64,000 nucleotides of DNA from Nitrospirota bacterium (GTDB lineage Bacteria > Nitrospirota > Thermodesulfovibrionia > Thermodesulfovibrionales > SM23-35): assembly GCA_014859105.1 (NCBI GenBank), contig JACUUX010000005.1, positions 1,759-65,758 of the forward strand. Reading direction: 5' to 3'. The notes under the pieces are model-generated. The model did not search any database and had not been told where the DNA came from. It was given only the letters and a program-made list of their open reading frames with translations. Position 1 is the first letter of the stretch; each line of letters opens with the position of its first letter. A program made the position numbers and the translations under genes. Of the stretch, positions 2,774 to 64,000 are shown in pieces.

Positions 2774-5146
2774 TTATTTTAACATTATTAAAGTTATACC
2801 ATTACCTCCTTCTTCGAAAGTTCCGCTCCTGAAGGATTTTACAAGAGGGTGCCCGTTCAAATGTTCATGTATAGCTTTCATTAGCAGTCCCTTGCCGATA
2901 CCATGAATAATTATTCCCTCACGCAATTCAGCTAAAGCAGCATGGTTAAGGAATTTTTCAAGTCTTGATAGTGCCTCATCCACTCTTAAGCCAACGAGAT
3001 TTATTCTCGATGAAACAGTCTCTTCTTTTTCTTTATCGACCTGAAAAGTGCCCTCTTTTACAGGTATAGCTTTATCTTTCTTGAAACGTATCTCTGATAA
3101 CGGGACTTCAATCTCCATATTTTTAGCCAATATTTTTAGCCGGTTATTTTTCCTGTTAATGTCTATGACTGATGCATCGTATCCAAGAGGTATGACAAAT
3201 ACCACGTCTCCCTCTTTTATCTCATCTATTAAAGGAATGGCATGGTCTTCTGTTTCATATTTCATACGTTTTTTCTCGATCTCTACTTTATTGGATTCGT
3301 GTTGCTTGAGAATCTTACGGCTTTCTTCCTTTCCTTTTTTCTTCATTTCTTCAAGCAAGGCATTCATCTGCCTTCGTGTTTCTGAAACGATATCTGAAGC
3401 CTCTTTATAAGCATTTGCGAGTATTTCTTTTTGTCTTTTTTCCAATTCGGATACCCTTTGTCTGAGCAGTCTGTTTTTTTCTTCTATTTCTGCTTTCTGT
3501 TGTTTAAGTTCATTAAGCATTTTTTCGTATTGCAATCTTTTTTCGTTAAGATCAGCTATCAGATTGTCAAATTCAGATTTCATCGTCCCTAATAGACCTT
3601 TTGCTTCATTGATTACATTATCCGGCATGCCATATCTTCTCGCTATCTCAATGGCGTGGGATTGTCCTGGCTCGCCAATCCTTAATCTGTATAAAGGGGT
3701 AAGGGTTTTTAAATCAAATTCCATTGAGGCATTGATCATACTTTCTGTCCTGTGAACAAACCCCTTTATCTCTGACAGATGCGTAGTCGCAAAAACAAGT
3801 GCTTTTCTTTTTCTTAATTCTTTTAAAATCGCACACGATATTGCCGCACCTTCTTCAGGGTCGGTTCCTGTGCCGAGTTCATCTATGAGAATGACTGATT
3901 TAGTATCTTTGTTCTTCAGGATTTCAGATATATTTGATATATGTGCAGAAAATGTGGAAAGGTTTTTTTCTATCGACTGTTCATCTCCTATATCTACTAA
4001 TAGATTCTGGACAAGCGGTATGCTTGATGAAGAGTCAGCAGGTATGGGCATGCCGGATAATGCCATGATAATGAGAAGTCCGATAGTCTTGATCGCCACC
4101 GTTTTTCCTCCTGCATTTGCACCTGTTATGACCATTACAGTATTTCCATTTCCCAAATGGATATCGAGGGGTTCTATACGCTGACCACTGCTTATTTTTT
4201 TTAGGGAGAGTTCAAGAAGAGGATGTCTTGCCTTTTCGAGCTTGATTATATCTGAAGAATTTACTTGAGCAGATTCCATCCGGAGGAAATCAGCAAACCT
4301 TGAAATACAATTAAGGACATCGATGTAGAGGATAGTTTTAAATTCTGCTTCTATTTCGTTTATTACTTTTCTTATCATCGAACAGATATTCCTTAAAATT
4401 CGGATCTCCTCCGCCTTTTGCTCGGCGATAAGATTTTCGAGTTCATTAGAGAGATTTATAATAGATAGAGGTTCAATAAATGCAGTTTCCCCGGATTTTG
4501 AAACATCATGAACAACACCTGGCACCATTCCCTTGGAGTCCATCCTGACGGGTATTACCCATCTTCCAGATCTTGTTGTGATAAAATCATCCTGCAGAAA
4601 AACAGAAATTTTTCCGTCTCTCACAATATCTTCGAGTTTTTTACGTATTCTTGCTTCGAGTTTTCTTACCCGGGCTCTCAAATCAGAAAGAAGAAATGAG
4701 GCGCTGTCAAGGATATTCCCCTCACTGTCAATGGATTTTTTGAGAATATTAAATATATCAGGGAATCCGGTAAGATTATTTGTAATTTTTTTTAAAAACG
4801 GCAGATCAAATCTGTCTTTTAGCTGTTCTGATATATCACAGGCGATGCTCAGTACCGGTATAAATTCAGAAAGCTCCTTTGCTTCAAGAACTGCCCCTTC
4901 GGGTTTTATCTTTACAATGTGCTGAGATATATCCGAAAAAAAAGACAGCTTAAGCGGGCTGCCATCGTGGGATGTTTTCCGTATCTCTGAGACCTGCTTA
5001 AGCCTATTTTCGATATCTTCTTTATTATTAAGAGGATAGATTTCTAAAACAGATTTTTTTGAAGCCTCACTGTTCGAATAATCAGCAATAAGCCTTAAAA
5101 GTTTATCGAATTCAAGGAGTTCCATGGAATTTATAGGAACCATCAT
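2774..5146 (-). CDS. mutS2: endonuclease MutS2 (MutS domain V ATPase plus C-terminal Smr)
   Basis: 790 aa, Walker A GANAGGKTV, DELGTGTDP, coiled-coil linker, and a Smr domain at the C-terminus (LRVDEAL...IIHGIGKGLL). Confidence 0.9.
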   Translation of the reverse strand: MMVPINSMELLEFDKLLRLIADYSNSEASKKSVLEIYPLNNKEDIENRLKQVSEIRKTSHDGSPLKLSFFSDISQHIVKIKPEGAVLEAKELSEFIPVLSIACDISEQLKDRFDLPFLKKITNNLTGFPDIFNILKKSIDSEGNILDSASFLLSDLRARVRKLEARIRKKLEDIVRDGKISVFLQDDFITTRSGRWVIPVRMDSKGMVPGVVHDVSKSGETAFIEPLSIINLSNELENLIAEQKAEEIRILRNICSMIRKVINEIEAEFKTILYIDVLNCISRFADFLRMESAQVNSSDIIKLEKARHPLLELSLKKISSGQRIEPLDIHLGNGNTVMVITGANAGGKTVAIKTIGLLIIMALSGMPIPADSSSSIPLVQNLLVDIGDEQSIEKNLSTFSAHISNISEILKNKDTKSVILIDELGTGTDPEEGAAISCAILKELRKRKALVFATTHLSEIKGFVHRTESMINASMEFDLKTLTPLYRLRIGEPGQSHAIEIARRYGMPDNVINEAKGLLGTMKSEFDNLIADLNEKRLQYEKMLNELKQQKAEIEEKNRLLRQRVSELEKRQKEILANAYKEASDIVSETRRQMNALLEEMKKKGKEESRKILKQHESNKVEIEKKRMKYETEDHAIPLIDEIKEGDVVFVIPLGYDASVIDINRKNNRLKILAKNMEIEVPLSEIRFKKDKAIPVKEGTFQVDKEKEETVSSRINLVGLRVDEALSRLEKFLNHAALAELREGIIIHGIGKGLLMKAIHEHLNGHPLVKSFRSGTFEEGGNGITLIMLK

Positions 5147-23144: not shown

Positions 23145-25871
23145 TTATCTCCGAATGCTTCTCCTCTTCCACCACTTTTCAATCTCAACAGCGAAGAAAA
23201 CAACTGAAGACAGTCCAAAACACAACAATAACTCGGACAACGTAAGGGGGTTTGTTTTGAATATCGGGTTCAGATAAGGCACATATATTGTTGCCAGTTG
23301 AAGCAAGACAGTCAGTATAAATGCACCAATCAATGGCTTGTTAGATAATATCCCCTGTGAATAAAGAGATTCTTTCTCTGACCTGACTGCAAGGACATTG
23401 CCCATCTGACTAAGGCATAATACTGTAAACACCATAGTCTGCCAGTGCGTATTACCTGCATTGATTGCCATCGCCTGAGTAAATATAGAGACAGCACCCA
23501 TAAGAAGACCGACCCAGATTATTTGAATCCACATACCTGTAAATATATTTTCCTGGGGGTCCCTCGGTGGCCTTTTCATAATATCTTTCTCTGCCGGTTC
23601 TGCCGCAAGTGCCAGACCGGGAAGTCCATCTGTAACAAGATTAATCCATAAAATATGGATTGGCAGAAGCGGAAGAGGGAGTCCGAGGAAAGGTGCAAGG
23701 AATATCGTCCATATCTCTCCTGAATTGCTTGTCATAGTATATCTTATAAATTTACGTATATTATCAAATATCCGTCTGCCTTCCCTGACAGCTTTAACAA
23801 TAGTAGCGAAGTTGTCATCCAGTAATATCATGTGTGCTGCTTCTTTTGCCACATCAGTACCTGTAATACCCATCGCCACTCCTATATCCGCCCTTTTCAA
23901 TGCAGGCGCATCATTGACACCGTCTCCTGTCATTGCAACAAACTGCTTCCTGTCCTGAAGTGCCTTGATTATCTTCAACTTCTGTTCAGGTGCTACACGT
24001 GCATAAACTCTTATATCTTCAACCTGTTCCTCGAATTCTTCTAATGGTAATTTCTCAAGCTCCATCCCTGTGATTAGCGCTTTTGAATCATCCTCAATGA
24101 TACTGAGCCTCTTAGCAATTACCCTTGCTGTAATTGGATGATCACCTGTAATCATCACGGGTTTTATCCCCGCAGTTTTACATAATGCTACTGCCTCTTT
24201 AGCTTCTTCTCTTGGAGGGTCCATCATGCCTATAAGCCCTAAGAGGGTAAGCTCTGATTCAATATTTTCAGGTGACATATCATCTGGCAATGCATTCCAG
24301 GTTCTCATTGCAATACACAAAACCCTTAATCCATCAGCAGCCATTCTTTCACCTGCCTGTATTATTTCCAATGGATTGACAGGTTTTATTCCCTCTGCTG
24401 TAAAGATGCCCATTGATCTTTCAATAAGCACATCAATCGCACCCTTTGTGAAGGAAACAAATCCCCCCCTGCCCCCCTTTTCTAAAGGGGGGTGAGGGGG
24501 GATTACATGAAACGTGGTCATACACTTCCTGTCTGAATCAAAGGGTATTTCACTGACCCTTACAAATTTCCTTTCAAGCACTTTTTTATGAAAACCGTTA
24601 TCTTTCGCAATATTATAAAGGGCAATTTCTGTGGGGTCGCCGATGACATTGCCCTGGGCGTCCATATGTGCATCGTTGCTTAAGGCAAGAGCAGTCATCA
24701 GTAAATCATGCGGTGATTGAAATAAGGATGCATGATGCATGATACCAGATGCATTATTTCCTGTATCCTGAGGCTTATATCCGGAATCCTGCACCGTGCA
24801 TCTTAACTCCTGTACCTTGATCATCTTTCCATCCACCCGCAACTCTTCCACCGCCATCTTGTTCAATGTAAGTGTTCCAGTCTTGTCAGAGCATACGTAT
24901 GTGACGGATCCGAGGGTCTCCACCGCAGGGAGTTTTCTTATGAGAGCATTCTGTTTGACCATCTTTTTAGCACCAATTGCAAGAGAAATGGTTACAACCG
25001 CAGGCAGTGCCTCAGGTATTGCTGCAACAGCAAGGGATACGGCTGTGAGAAGCATCAAAAGAGGGGGTTCTCCTCTAAATATTCCTATGCTGAAAACAAT
25101 AGCGCATATGCCCAAAACTGCAATAGCGAGTTTCTGACCAAACCTGGCAAGCCTCTTCTGGAGAGGTGTCTTTACCTCTTTTTCTTCCTGAAGCAAGGTT
25201 GCAATCCTGCCCAGTTCTGTCTCCATACCGGTCATTGCAACAATACCTGTTCCCCGACCATATGTAGCGAATGTTCCCTTATACGCCATGTTTTTCCTGT
25301 CACCGATTGGTAAAAGCTCACCATGCAGTGGCTTAGTATGTTTTTCTATCGGTATGGATTCCCCTGTCAATGCTGCCTCTTCAATTTTTAGCTGAACAGC
25401 CTCCGTAAGCCTCATATCGGCAGGAACAATCTTTCCTGCTTCAAGGATTACAATATCACCCGGAACGACTTGAGATGCAGGGATATTTAAAAGCATCCCA
25501 TCCCTCATTACTGTTGCAATGGGCGCTGCCATTTTTTTAAGGGCGGCCATTGCCTTCTCAGCCCTGTATTCCTGAACAAATCCTATTACGGCGTTTATGA
25601 TGATAATCACCAATATTGCTATGGTATCTGCAAGCTCTCCGATTATTCCTGAGACTATTGCAGCAATCATAAGGACAATAATCATGAAGTCACTGAATTG
25701 ATCAAGGAACATTATGAGAGGGTTTTTCTTCTTTTTTTCTTTTAATATGTTTAGACCATAATGCCCGAGTCTCCTCCTGGCTTCATCACTGGAAAGTCCG
25801 TCCGGCGAAGTTTTTAACTCGCTAAAAATGCTGTCTATATCTTTTTGGTGCCAATGCATATTATTTTTCAT
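23145..25871 (-). CDS. cation-transporting P-type ATPase (P2, Ca2+/Mg2+-type) with two in-frame repeat insertions
   Basis: DKTGTLT, TGES, PEALPAV (TM4), [11 protein letters not shown]. Confidence 0.9.
24470..24514. repeat. 45-nt G6/C6 palindrome inside the ATPase frame
   Basis: AATCCCCCCCTGCCCCCCTTTTCTAAAGGGGGGTGAGGGGGGATT; encodes [15 protein letters not shown]. Confidence 0.85.
24726..24793. repeat. ~70-nt CAGGAT/ATGCATC-rich element inside the ATPase frame
   Basis: Encodes [24 protein letters not shown] related element is present in tgt. Confidence 0.65.
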
Positions 25872-32460: not shown

Positions 32461-32583
32461 TAATACAAACGCATTAAGTAAAATGTCATTGCGAGGAGCG
32501 CTAGCGATGTGGCAATCCCAAAAACGAGATTGCTTCGCTTCGCTCGCAATGACAATGTAAAGATATTAAGTGCGTTTGTATTA
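32461..32583. repeat. ~123-bp element: CATTGCGAGG...GCAATGAC core flanked by 13-17-bp inverted repeats
   Basis: Core is GTCATTGCGAGGAGCGCTAGCGATGTGGCAATCC...GAGATTGCTTCGCTTCGCTCGCAATGAC. Outer inverted repeat is TAATACAAACGCA / TGCGTTTGTATTA. Confidence 0.75.
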
Positions 32584-61747: not shown

Positions 61748-62673
61748 AATACCTCAATCCAGTTATTGAATAATTTTTCTCTTTTCTGCTCGAATAGATA
61801 ATAATATATTTCCCTCTCTACTTCTTCAATCGGTTTATGAAGCCCGGTTTTTCGGTCAATTAGATGCAAGATGTAAACACCGTCACTAACCCATACCGGA
61901 TCGCTTATCTCTCCTTTCTCCATAGAGAATACCTTTGTATCCAGGGGAGGTATCAACTCGCCTTTTGTAAATTCTCCCAATATTCCCTCCTGACTTTTTA
62001 GGGGCTCATCAGAATATTCATATACAAGCCTGTCAAAACTTTCTCCTTTTTTCAGCAAAGAAGCTATCTTCAGAGATCTGCGTTTCAATTCTGTAATTTC
62101 CGTAACAGAAGCGTCTTTTTCCACTCTGAGAAAAATTGCTCCTGCTACCACTGACACCGGAATTTTTATATAATTTTTTTTATTTTCACTGTAAAAAGCT
62201 TCAATTTCATCATCATTTATTACAACTTTTGAATCCATGTAAATATTGATAAGTTTTAAAGATATTATTTTATCTCTTGTAAGCCTCATGTAATCATTTA
62301 GATCCATTCCTTCTTCCCTGAGAAATTCTTCAAACTCCTCCTGAGACACTCCGTTTTCTTTTATGAACGCCCTCATCCATTCATCCACATCTTCATCGCT
62401 TACCTCTATCCCTTTACTTTTCGCCTCCTGAAGAATGATCCTTTCTTCTATCAGTCTTTTTAACAATGTCTCATCAACAACATCTTTATTTTCCATTTTT
62501 CCTGTATCTTCTATATTACCATCCATGCTTTTAACAAACTGTTTATAATCTGTCAGAGTTATCACATCATTGCCAACTGTGGCAATAACCCTGTCCACGG
62601 TGATAGCATAAGAAGGACATACTGCCAATGAATTTATCAAGAACATAAGGAACAGCGTAATATTGCGTATCAT
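61711..62673 (-). CDS. SurA/PpiD-like periplasmic chaperone-PPIase
   Basis: Signal peptide, SurA_N-like region (VDRVIATVGNDVITLTDY), and a parvulin-like segment. Start at ATG 62673. Confidence 0.65.
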   Translation of the reverse strand: MIRNITLFLMFLINSLAVCPSYAITVDRVIATVGNDVITLTDYKQFVKSMDGNIEDTGKMENKDVVDETLLKRLIEERIILQEAKSKGIEVSDEDVDEWMRAFIKENGVSQEEFEEFLREEGMDLNDYMRLTRDKIISLKLINIYMDSKVVINDDEIEAFYSENKKNYIKIPVSVVAGAIFLRVEKDASVTEITELKRRSLKIASLLKKGESFDRLVYEYSDEPLKSQEGILGEFTKGELIPPLDTKVFSMEKGEISDPVWVSDGVYILHLIDRKTGLHKPIEEVEREIYYYLFEQKREKLFNNWIEVLWEKASVKIQKD

Positions 62674-62687
62674 GTAACTTTTACTTT

Positions 62688-63416
62688 TCAAGCTGAACTT
62701 CTTAATTTCTCCAGAACCTTCTGTGCATCCTCCCAGGTCCGCCATTTATCTTTTGGGTTCCTGATTAAATAGGCAGGGTGAAATGTCGGCATCAAGAGAA
62801 TACCCTTGTAATCGAAAAATTTGCCACGTATTGATGTTATTTTTAACTTGGGATTTCCTGTAAGGGTTAGTGCTGCTATCCTGCCCAGGGCCATAATTAT
62901 TTTCGGCCTTATTATTTCTATCTGCCTTTCAAGAAAACTCCTGCATTTTTCTATCTCATCTGCTTCAGGCTCCCGATTCATAGGAGGTCTGCATTTAACT
63001 ATGTTTGCAATATATACATCCTCCCTCATGAATCCCATTTTTTCTATGAGCCTAGTGAGCAACATGCCTGCGTCTCCTACAAATGGTTTTGCCTGTAGGT
63101 CCTCTTGCTTACCGGGTGCCTCACCAATAAACATAAGATTTGCATCGGGATTGCCTTCTCCGAAAACTATATTTGTTCTTTGGATTGAAAGCTTGCACCT
63201 CCTGCAATCATTAATCTCTTCTCTCAGTGCTTTCAAGGCTGCCTCTTTAATCCCCCCACACCCCCCTTTAGAAAAGGGGGGTAAGGGGGGATTTTGGTTC
63301 AGAGATTTGACATCTGTAATTTGACTTTTGATTTTTAATTTTATCGGTAGATGTTCAAATCCTAATGCCTGATAAAATTCGAGAATGTTTTTTATTTGCT
63401 CAACAATACTTGCCAT
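62688..63416 (-). CDS. uracil-DNA glycosylase family 4 with an in-frame 45-nt palindrome
   Basis: CRRCKL, GEAPG, FHPAYLIRNP. Start at ATG 63416. Confidence 0.85.
   Translation of the reverse strand: MASIVEQIKNILEFYQALGFEHLPIKLKIKSQITDVKSLNQNPPLPPFSKGGCGGIKEAALKALREEINDCRRCKLSIQRTNIVFGEGNPDANLMFIGEAPGKQEDLQAKPFVGDAGMLLTRLIEKMGFMREDVYIANIVKCRPPMNREPEADEIEKCRSFLERQIEIIRPKIIMALGRIAALTLTGNPKLKITSIRGKFFDYKGILLMPTFHPAYLIRNPKDKWRTWEDAQKVLEKLRSSA
63249..63293. repeat. 45-nt G6/C6 palindrome inside the UDG frame
   Basis: AATCCCCCCACACCCCCCTTTAGAAAAGGGGGGTAAGGGGGGATT; encodes [15 protein letters not shown]. Confidence 0.85.
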
Positions 63417-63464
63417 TCTTAATTTTGAATTTTGAGTTTGAATTTTGAATTTCAAATTTTTTTA

Positions 63465-64000
63465 TTATCGTTCCCCCCACTTTAATTTTGTTCTGAGAAT
63501 TTTGAAATAATCTCTCTCGCAAGGAACGAAAAGTTTTGTTTTGAATTTGGATTTCTTTACTTCAACAACATCATCCTGTTTTAAAGAAAAACCGACCTGC
63601 CCGTCGAGTGTAAGAAAAACATCTTCATTATGTGACTTCAGGATTATTTCTACCAATATGTTGTCAGGCATTATTATTGGCCTGTTTGTCAGGGTATGGG
63701 GACAGATTGGTGCTATTCCTATACTGTTGAGCGTTGGGTAGAGAATGGGACCTCCTGCAGAGAGGGCATAAGCCGTCGAACCTGTTGGAGTTGAAACTAT
63801 AAGCCCGTCAGCTTTAAATGTAGCGACATAAATATGGTTTATATAAGTCTCAAGGTCAATTATCCTTGCAAGTGCCCCTTTATTTACTACAACATCATTC
63901 ATTACAACAAATTCAGCAATACATTCACTATGTCTGAAAACACATGCTGTAAGCATAATCCGTTCTTCAATAGAACATTCACCGGCAAGCACTTTTTCAA
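63465..64000 (-). CDS. nadK: NAD kinase (partial; N-terminus lies beyond the window)
   Basis: NDVVV.KG, ADGLIVSTPTGSTAY, PICPH. The frame is open to the window edge. Confidence 0.85.
   Translation of the reverse strand, partial: EKVLAGECSIEERIMLTACVFRHSECIAEFVVMNDVVVNKGALARIIDLETYINHIYVATFKADGLIVSTPTGSTAYALSAGGPILYPTLNSIGIAPICPHTLTNRPIIMPDNILVEIILKSHNEDVFLTLDGQVGFSLKQDDVVEVKKSKFKTKLFVPCERDYFKILRTKLKWGER

Follow-up and report, generated by a model that had tools for sequence, protein, structure and literature searches.

A 45-nt palindrome read in frame in a family-4 uracil-DNA glycosylase gene of a Nitrospirota bacterium is one copy of a dispersed and probably selfish repeat family

The 64-kb window analyzed here (64,000 nt of contig JACUUX010000005.1 from a Nitrospirota bacterium, numbered from its first letter) carries at positions 63249-63293 a 45-nt palindrome built of C6 and G6 runs, which lies in frame in the gene for a family-4 uracil-DNA glycosylase (UDG). 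This palindrome belongs to a repeat family that is dispersed in several phyla, occupies both intragenic and intergenic sites and is conserved at the nucleotide level. The occupation of the same sites in orthologs of the UDG and of a P-type ATPase encoded in the same window is either old or recurrent, and is accompanied by decay, duplication of arms and nesting. We consider it probable that the unit is a selfish palindrome akin to the repetitive extragenic palindromes (REPs) and the Rickettsia palindromic elements (RPEs), which would be spread or renewed by a hairpin-specific enzyme and tolerated by the host proteins as a translated Pro/Gly linker.

The plus strand at 63249-63293 reads AATCCCCCCACACCCCCCTTTAGAAAAGGGGGGTAAGGGGGGATT, exactly as reported, sequence and coordinates alike, in a first-pass annotation of this DNA made from the letters alone. 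The left half comprises AAT-C6 (63249-63257), the spacer ACA (63258-63260) and C6-TTT (63261-63269), followed by the loop AGA (63270-63272) and by a right half of AAA-G6 (63273-63281), the spacer TAA (63282-63284) and G6-ATT (63285-63293). On the minus strand, the element is read in the open reading frame (ORF) 62688-63416 as the codons AAT-(CCC)2-TTA-(CCC)2-TTT-TCT-AAA-(GGG)2-TGT-(GGG)2-ATT, which encode residues 42-56 in the N-terminal region of the protein, 14 residues ahead of the CRRCKL motif; the same annotation had rightly placed it just before this motif. The pattern C6N3C6..G6N3G6 occurs twice in the window versus 0.00 times as expected from 100 shuffles, and the two copies, one in the UDG gene and one in the ATPase gene, rank first and second among the inverted repeats of the window. 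On each strand, the element forms two stems of 9-11 bp separated by a small internal loop, at a free energy of about -20 to -21 kcal/mol; the DNA hairpin of the UDG copy has a free energy of about -21 kcal/mol (z = -4.7 to -4.9), and this copy scores 57 bits against the family profile (nhmmer). The UDG copy encodes its four Pro residues by CCC and its four Gly residues by GGG throughout (P ~2e-6), given that CCC makes up 20% of the Pro codons and GGG 19% of the Gly codons in the long ORFs of the window. This choice of CCC or GGG in eight out of eight codons points to conservation at the nucleotide level, i.e., of the DNA rather than of the peptide. No terminator-like site was called in the region 62600-63600, where an ATTTTGG tail is present on the plus strand only, and no Rfam family matches the element, the search returning just sub-threshold miRNA-like noise. 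As for an intein or an intron, 15 codons are too few for a splicing domain. The decayed copies in orthologs of the UDG are still in frame, which argues for read-through, and the UDG copy is thus probably retained as a part of the product rather than removed.

The reconstructed family extends far beyond the window. A scan of GTDB genomes with a loose pattern, which mostly returned poly-C/poly-G junk from high-GC genomes, yielded ~25 useful loci. Among them, the same architecture is present in metagenome-assembled genomes (MAGs) of Nitrospirota, Nitrospira and Thermodesulfovibrionia (L043, L079, L081, and L102), in Syntrophaceae (L037), Deltaproteobacteria (L061), Dehalococcoidia (L067), and Pseudomonadota (L019 and L051), and close variants are found in another MAG of Deltaproteobacteria (L105), in Geomonas (L107), in Nitrospinota, and, flanked by GAT..ATC, in cyanobacteria. 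A scan of metagenomes with the pattern CCCCCCNNNCCCCCCTTTNNNAAAGGGGGGNNNGGGGGG, in which three bases on either side were left open, revealed at least 120 contigs that carry the element. Among 125 de-duplicated copies, the open flanking bases are A/A/T in 122/117/116 cases (~95%) and are mirrored on the right; the fourth position outward is occupied by A (93) or T (84), beyond which no signal is seen. These mirrored flanks define the unit as the 45-mer AAT-C6-N3-C6-TTT-N3-AAA-G6-N3-G6-ATT, which consists of two 9-bp stems with a 3x3 spacer between them and a 3-nt loop as a cap, and which is maintained in contigs of 35% to 69% GC. A profile search (nhmmer, profile built from the pattern copies) identified 132 further imperfect copies in the same loci, bringing the totals to 133 canonical and 132 imperfect copies in ~0.8 Mb. 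The imperfect variants have 2-4-nt spacers or three of the four runs only, represent G5/C5 relatives, or form longer composite palindromes. Copies may be dense: locus L213 has nine of them in 5 kb, so that almost all spacers between its small genes contain one, L173 and L234 have four copies each, and the Nitrospira locus L102 has an in-frame copy in a gene (at 2249) with one further copy on either side. Viral contigs gave six matches in 2.9 million, thus phages are no obvious vector.

The intergenic copies often constitute a module of a mosaic, CACCCGCGAACCATGAAAAT-[palindrome]-ATTTGAAAGTTATTTTCTAAC, and others are located between inverted ATGAAAAT arms. The inverted arms that bracket the element can also be paired as ATGAAAAT/ATTTTCAT or CCAGAAAT/ATTTCTGG, an organization that resembles bacterial interspersed mosaic elements (BIMEs), and such mosaic and arm contexts were seen in L138, L156, L175, L182, L204, L223, L231, L154, L176, L196, and L205. 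The two intergenic copies of the Nitrospira locus (L102:1925-1970 and 3378-3423) share the extended flanks GGACCAATAAT..ATTAGAATCGGG and differ in the middle base of the loop (AGT vs ACT). At L212:3061-3137, a long composite palindrome, AAT-C6-TTC-C7-TTTAGTAAA-G6-ATAATAATT-C6-TTTACTAAA-G7-AA-G6-ATT, looks like two fused units or growth from the center. In many contigs, one end is just a few bases away from the element or inside it (e.g., L137, L165, L193, L201, L037, L043, L147, and L176), as is to be expected if a multi-copy repeat breaks short-read assemblies, and several database 'proteins' begin inside the translation of the element (P0158 and P0159).

Copies located at least 15 codons inside an ORF of at least 150 codons were regarded as deep intragenic. 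By this definition, 47 of 127 copies (~37%) are deep in long ORFs, whereas the other ~63%, mostly intergenic, are not. The intragenic copies are translated in frame 0 as NPPxPPFxKGGxGGI (28 copies) or in frame 1 as IPPxPPLxKGGxGG (17 copies), and the two copies in frame 2 have no listed peptide; the common loops AGT/ACT, TCT/AGA, and AGC/GCT make stop codons in this frame. Since the length of the unit is a multiple of three and two of the three frames are open on both strands, most insertions into a tolerant loop leave the gene intact. The host genes are unrelated housekeeping genes, including those for a TatD-radical SAM protein, a molybdopterin oxidoreductase, EPSP synthase, and a pterin/B12-binding methionine-synthase-like protein, and, as putative hosts recognized by reading, a glutamate synthase, an SNF2-type helicase, and a NagA-like deacetylase.

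The second copy of the window (24460-24504) is in the opposite orientation to the UDG copy and is in frame (element frame +1) in the minus-strand gene of a 908-aa cation-transporting P-type ATPase (23145-25871), where it occupies a loop of the nucleotide-binding (Cation_ATPase) domain, MTTFHV|..|FVSFTKGA. The loops of the two copies are reverse complements (AGA vs TCT), a point missed by the first-pass annotation; the copies are thus inverted relative to each other and to their genes, both of which are on the minus strand, and this is the reason for their differing peptides. With one copy flipped, 42 of 45 positions are identical, and the differences are confined to the two 3-nt spacers and the loop, as had been stated. 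Most orthologs of the ATPase lack the element and have a short loop (e.g., KWADGF); in several others, this very loop carries an element-like peptide, either intact or decayed. One ortholog (L245) has IPGGGI (ATC CCT GGT GGG GGT ATT) at the site; this could be what a deletion left behind or a look-alike of an empty site. The ORF of this ortholog (L245:543-2055) is broken into short ones (103, 110, and 184 aa), suggestive of a pseudogene or a poor assembly.

The UDG gene itself (62688-63416, minus strand) encodes a 242-aa protein, its ORF is intact across the element, and the product is 100% identical to an annotated protein of a Nitrospirae MAG. The assignment to family 4, already made in the first reading, stands on a TIGR00758 score of 211 bits (curated cut-off 125), a Pfam UDG match (1.7e-38), a match to Thermus UDGA (1UI0, E = 1.4e-53), and the CxxC Fe-S cysteines C71 and C74, which are invariant in 46 orthologs. 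The catalytic core (residues 58-242; 62691-63245, minus strand) includes the CRRC Fe-S cysteines, and the element is outside it, in a hypervariable linker (residues 24-57; 63246-63347, minus strand) between the N-terminal helix and the UDG core. Across the same 46 orthologs, the CRRC cysteines and the remaining core are invariant. The content of the linker is completely different from one ortholog to another. Solved structures of family-4 UDGs align just from residue 58-61 on (1UI0, from 61) and have no counterpart of the linker. In the AlphaFold2 model built on these orthologs, an N-terminal helix (residues 2-18) is followed by residues 24-53 with a predicted local distance difference test score (pLDDT) below 50 and without secondary structure, and the core begins with the helix 54-69. 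The element is thus predicted to sit in a disordered linker ahead of the catalytic core that would tolerate anything, and we propose from the model that it has no role in UDG catalysis and may simply be a translated part of the linker. The NAD kinase-UDG-SurA gene order is conserved in orthologs.

To follow the site through time, we compared 120 close orthologs of the UDG (66-84% identical), in which NAD kinase-UDG synteny holds in every locus checked and SurA or HIT is encoded downstream. The segment between 'E.LPI' and 'KEAALKALREEIGDC' is hypervariable in these proteins: the full PPxPP[FL]xKGGxGG motif is present in 9 of the 120, a partial one in 21, and none in 90, so that about a quarter are carriers. 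Conservation of the segment in UDG orthologs of unrelated taxa, which the first-pass annotation had named as the observation that would count against its claim, was not found: the UDGs of Thermus and Thermotoga lack the entire N-terminal extension, and it is within the Nitrospirota clade that ~25% of orthologs have the element at the same linker position. The closest ortholog (P0002, 84% amino acid identity) carries at these very codons a decayed copy, AAACCTTCCTTACATACCTTTACTAAAGTAGGGAAGGGTGGGATT, between flanks that are 87.5 and 88.9% identical; the copy in the window is thus not a recent private insertion. In L123 (P0011), a perfect palindrome with other triplets (CTG/ACT/CAG) stands directly after 'LPI' and shares the right border ATT-AAG-GAA. 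A copy with a duplicated right arm, KGGRGFEIKGLRGI, is present in L248 (P0017), whereas P0006, which is ~98% identical to P0017 outside the linker and has near-identical flanking DNA, has 72 unrelated bases in place of the copy. Approximately three nested or adjacent units occur in L250 (P0118), and the loop is lost in P0044 and P0087 (NPPSPPGGQGG). On a neighbor-joining tree of the UDG core, which is not robust, the carriers appear in ~10 separate places among non-carriers. The triplets of orthologous copies with 75-93% identical flanks differ at about half of the positions, as expected of unconstrained sites. Taken together, the aligned loci show that the UDG copy is either an old insertion subject to decay, duplication, and allelic replacement or the outcome of recurrent hits on a permissive, self-attracting site, and not a fresh one.

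The same linker accommodates another kind of repeat. In the ortholog P0113 (L249:1083-1147), it contains a different palindromic repeat of heptamers, (AGTCATT/AGTCAAT)x4, 14 nt, (CCAGTGA/CCAATGG/CCAATGA)x4, with 25-nt arms that are 76% complementary, which is translated as SLVNSHQSLL..TSDQWPMTND; similar peptides are present in P0057, P0064, and P0101. Judging from these linker sequences, repeats of more than one family have landed in the UDG linker.

A further regularity of the family concerns its 3-nt spacers, which are complementary to each other all or none: complementarity is 3/3 in 30 of 134 copies and 2/3 in 0 of 134 copies versus ~26 expected. Where the spacers are not perfectly complementary (104 copies), their bases next to the stems form 5 Watson-Crick pairs at the outer position (35 expected) and 1 at the inner position (29 expected), and the juxtaposition seen most often is C.A, or T.G if read from the opposite strand. 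For the intragenic copies, selection on an RNA hairpin was considered and rejected, since G.U-type pairs are not enriched on their sense strand (21 vs 39). As an analytical suggestion, a defined 3x3 internal loop may be a part of protein recognition, for which the imperfect hairpins of IS200/IS605 ends, REPs, or attC sites provide a comparison, or else the copies with perfect spacers may be products of hairpin-templated (quasipalindrome) correction.

The first-pass annotation had concluded that the two copies represent one mobile family rather than convergent low complexity. The family part of this conclusion is upheld by the same 45-nt architecture, including the AAT/ATT ends that the search pattern did not specify, in at least 120 metagenome contigs and in MAGs of several phyla, whereas mobility is indirectly deduced. 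It is plausible in view of the dispersal into unrelated genes and intergenic spacers, of the nested or duplicated copies, and of the presence or absence of the element among ~98%-identical UDG alleles. According to the selfish-repeat reading that we favor, copies would build up between genes, where they are often part of mosaic repeats, and also in permissive loops and linkers of proteins. Their survival inside genes would rest on a unit length that is a multiple of three, on two of three frames that are free of stop codons on either strand, and on the flexible Pro/Gly peptide encoded. Spread, or renewal by conversion, would be the work of an enzyme that acts on the hairpin in a sequence-specific manner, in the way that the HUH/Y1 REP-associated tyrosine transposases (RAYTs) act on REPs, and existing copies or hairpins may attract new ones.

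Several observations weigh against this reading. No clean pair of filled and empty sites with intact flanks was found, as flank-to-flank BLAST among the loci gave filled or decayed orthologous sites only. No transposase or other recurrent gene adjoins the copies among 2286 ORFs of 128 element-bearing loci (0.77 Mb), where all-against-all clustering and inspection of the ORFs between close copy pairs revealed ordinary genes only. The window has just two copies and no degenerate ones by the family profile search, and the 133 copies display 120 distinct combinations of the triplets (9 nt), thus they are not recent clones of a master element. The selfish-repeat reading does not account for the all-or-none complementarity of the spacers. 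In addition, perfect copies are present at the same site in UDG orthologs that are just 68-75% identical, which is not predicted for simple neutral selfish DNA unless re-insertion, conversion, or selection acts. The perfection of the arms is partly an ascertainment effect, as the loci found by pattern were ascertained for intact arms. The copies found via protein homology, which are free of this bias, are a mixture of decayed (L121), perfect (L123), partly decayed (L248), and composite (L250) ones. Direct target-site duplication was also looked for in the 125 copies and is absent: the AAT/ATT flanks are inverted, with no covariation or duplication beyond position -4.

With regard to enzymes, genes for DUF559 proteins (Vsr-like PD-(D/E)XK nucleases, PF04480) were observed at L213:7989-8336, L225:9863-10405, and L161:1563-1763, and in all three loci with such a gene copies of the element are located 5-100 nt from the gene ends. 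The regions around these genes are repeat-rich anyway, thus the proximity is no evidence of partnership, and DUF559 is a weak lead, either a candidate partner enzyme or a coincidence.

One alternative is that the hairpin is a cis element beneficial to the host, a DNA or RNA structure bound by a conserved host factor (as REPs are by gyrase/IHF) or acting as an mRNA stabilizer, a pause site, or a PPxPP ribosome-stalling site, so that selection keeps its arms. The persistence of all constant positions, including the AT-rich AAT/TTT/AAA/ATT, across the whole range of GC contents would fit such a role, as would the perfect copies in diverged UDG orthologs, the location of many intergenic copies at gene ends, and the avoidance of pairing by the spacer bases next to the stems, which suggests a defined internal loop. 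We nevertheless find it unlikely, because inside unrelated genes the element occurs in both orientations and two frames, its copy in the closest UDG ortholog has freely decayed and most orthologs have none, and the conservation of its arms is partly produced by the search pattern; the lack of G.U enrichment on the sense strand, of a terminator-like site at the UDG copy, and of an Rfam match also speaks against it.

It is likewise doubtful that a single ancient insertion in the ancestor of the UDG clade, and similarly of the ATPase, was inherited vertically, with the patchiness caused by decay, deletion, and allelic recombination of a now inactive element. That the nearest UDG ortholog has a decayed copy at identical codons agrees with this scenario, and so do the right border ATT-AAR-GAR that is common among carriers, the composite form shared by many orthologs (a full unit plus an extra right arm, FEKGGxGG), and the presence of two copies only in the window. 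Yet the scattering of carriers on the non-robust UDG tree, the nested or adjacent units of L250, the variable triplets that are essentially randomized between orthologous copies while the arms are perfect, and the many lineage-specific intergenic copies of other genomes are difficult to reconcile with it.

A bolder version of the selfish-repeat reading, which we offer as speculation with a slim chance of being right, views the G6/C6 unit as a self-renewing 'homing palindrome' across phyla, for which a sequence- and structure-specific enzyme, with the DUF559 nucleases as a weak lead, would recognize the two 9-bp stems and the deliberately unpaired 3x3 loop and copy or re-install the element at existing copies and permissive sites. 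If true, it would account for the perfect arms with randomized triplets at the same UDG and ATPase codons, for the all-or-none spacers, and for the nesting.

The peptide PPxPP-F/L-x-K-GGxGG might instead be a selected linker or interaction motif, with the palindromic DNA as its by-product; the ORF is open in all intragenic copies analyzed and the motif is found in linkers or loops. This is very improbable, as the codons are invariably CCC/GGG despite their ~20% usage each, with no synonymous recoding in natural orthologs, one and the same DNA sequence encodes two different peptides, according to its orientation and frame, ~60% of copies are outside long ORFs, and orthologs show free decay of the motif at the protein level. 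Finally, GC-rich homopolymer palindromes can arise from library or assembly errors and many contigs end at the element, but chance low complexity or an assembly artifact has next to no probability in the face of zero occurrences in 100 shuffles, the presence of the element in independent NCBI, JGI, ENA, and Logan assemblies, its in-frame position in conserved genes, the decayed in-frame versions in relatives, and contig ends that are typical of a multi-copy repeat.

The selfish-repeat reading places the element next to several known systems. Similarly to REPs and REPINs, it is a short GC-rich imperfect palindrome with an internal stem mismatch, which is multi-copy and dispersed, apparently mostly intergenic and occasionally genic, and often arranged in BIME-like arrays. 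REPs are defined by the tags GTAG or CGTC and are also found inside genes (PMC3733652). The ends of our element are AAT/ATT (~95% of 125 copies) without either tag, which leaves it outside the GTAG/CGTC REP super-families. It is, at 45 nt, slightly longer than the REP criterion of 20-40 bp, its sequence is common to several phyla, in contrast to the usual restriction of REPs to one species or genus, no RAYT was found near the copies in the 128 loci examined, and the ~37% of copies that are deep in ORFs exceed what is usual for REPs. With RPEs, it shares the occurrence of a palindromic family both between genes and in frame inside functional genes, with an extra translated surface or linker peptide that is compatible with the fold of the host protein. 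RPEs, which Ogata and colleagues reportedly presented in 2000 as 'selfish DNA in protein-coding genes' (cited in PMC3733652), are said to be ~100-150 bp long, AT-rich, and limited to Rickettsia, whereas the present element is 45 nt long, contains G6/C6 runs, and is present in free-living Nitrospirota, Desulfobacterota, Chloroflexota, and others. By its length and hosts, it is therefore not an RPE. A miniature inverted-repeat transposable element was rejected as well: the whole unit is palindromic, there are no terminal inverted repeats or target-site duplications, the flanks are inverted, and no parent insertion sequence was seen.

The multicopy nucleotide sequences of Geobacter are palindromic families in many intergenic regions, which are also inserted in genes without a frameshift (PMC2996986, PMC2700814). 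They come from the same ecological and phylogenetic neighborhood of subsurface anaerobes, and a variant of our element is present in Geomonas (L107); however, the Geobacter consensus is RGGGGACTGGCTCCGCMAGGTGCCTGTCCCCCTT, and the G6/C6 unit was not found in the supplementary files examined. The small dispersed repeats (SDRs) of cyanobacteria are reported to be very small (<50 nt; 21-27 nt), hairpin-forming, apparently mobile, nested, restricted to Nostocaceae, and inserted at the palindromic HIP1 target (PMC4390886, PMC5861425). The cyanobacterial cousins of our element that are flanked by GAT..ATC (L003, L010, L062, L082, and L119) may correspond to the SDRs of Elhai and colleagues (2008). 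Cousins with TTA/TAA-type centers and GAT..ATC flanks, e.g., GATCCCCCCTAACCCCCCTTAAGAAGGGGGGGAAAGGGGGG, were observed in the cyanobacterial MAGs L003, L010, L047, L062, L082, L085, and L119, and the flanks of the L062 cousin resemble a split HIP1 (GCGAT|..|ATCGC). GC-rich palindromic modules in AT-rich genomes are also represented by the GC clusters of yeast mitochondria. In mitochondria of Nematomorpha, coding palindromes invade coding regions and are tolerated (PMC6649704). These organellar elements are unrelated in sequence and some of them are bypassed by ribosomes, in contrast to the in-frame read-through of the element described here. The searchable literature contained no description of the element sequence or its peptides. 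The element thus seems to be an ordinary kind of selfish DNA that constitutes an undescribed sequence family.

Two other repeats were observed in the window. The first, at 32479-32559, is an inverted repeat whose arms, TAAAATGTCATTGCGAG / CTCGCAATGACAATGTA, are 47 nt apart, and its motif GTCATTGCGAG presumably resembles another widely dispersed repeat of anaerobe genomes. A C-rich stretch near the window start, ATCCCCCTCACCCTTACCCTCTCCCAC (536-560), may be a different type of short repeat.

The family has consequences for annotation, since PPxPP(F/L)xKGGxGG peptides and small 'hypothetical' ORFs in MAGs of Nitrospirota, Desulfobacterota, and Chloroflexota are derived from the repeat and should not be taken for motifs, and for assembly, since the repeat breaks contigs and fragments genes and gene calls. 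For evolution, it provides a tractable case of selfish DNA that creates and remodels protein linkers. The cross-phylum conservation and the all-or-none spacers are most worth following: the sharing of a 45-nt sequence among phyla and over a range of GC contents implies that the machinery recognizing it is conserved, and this machinery, if found, would extend the REP-RAYT paradigm beyond Proteobacteria.

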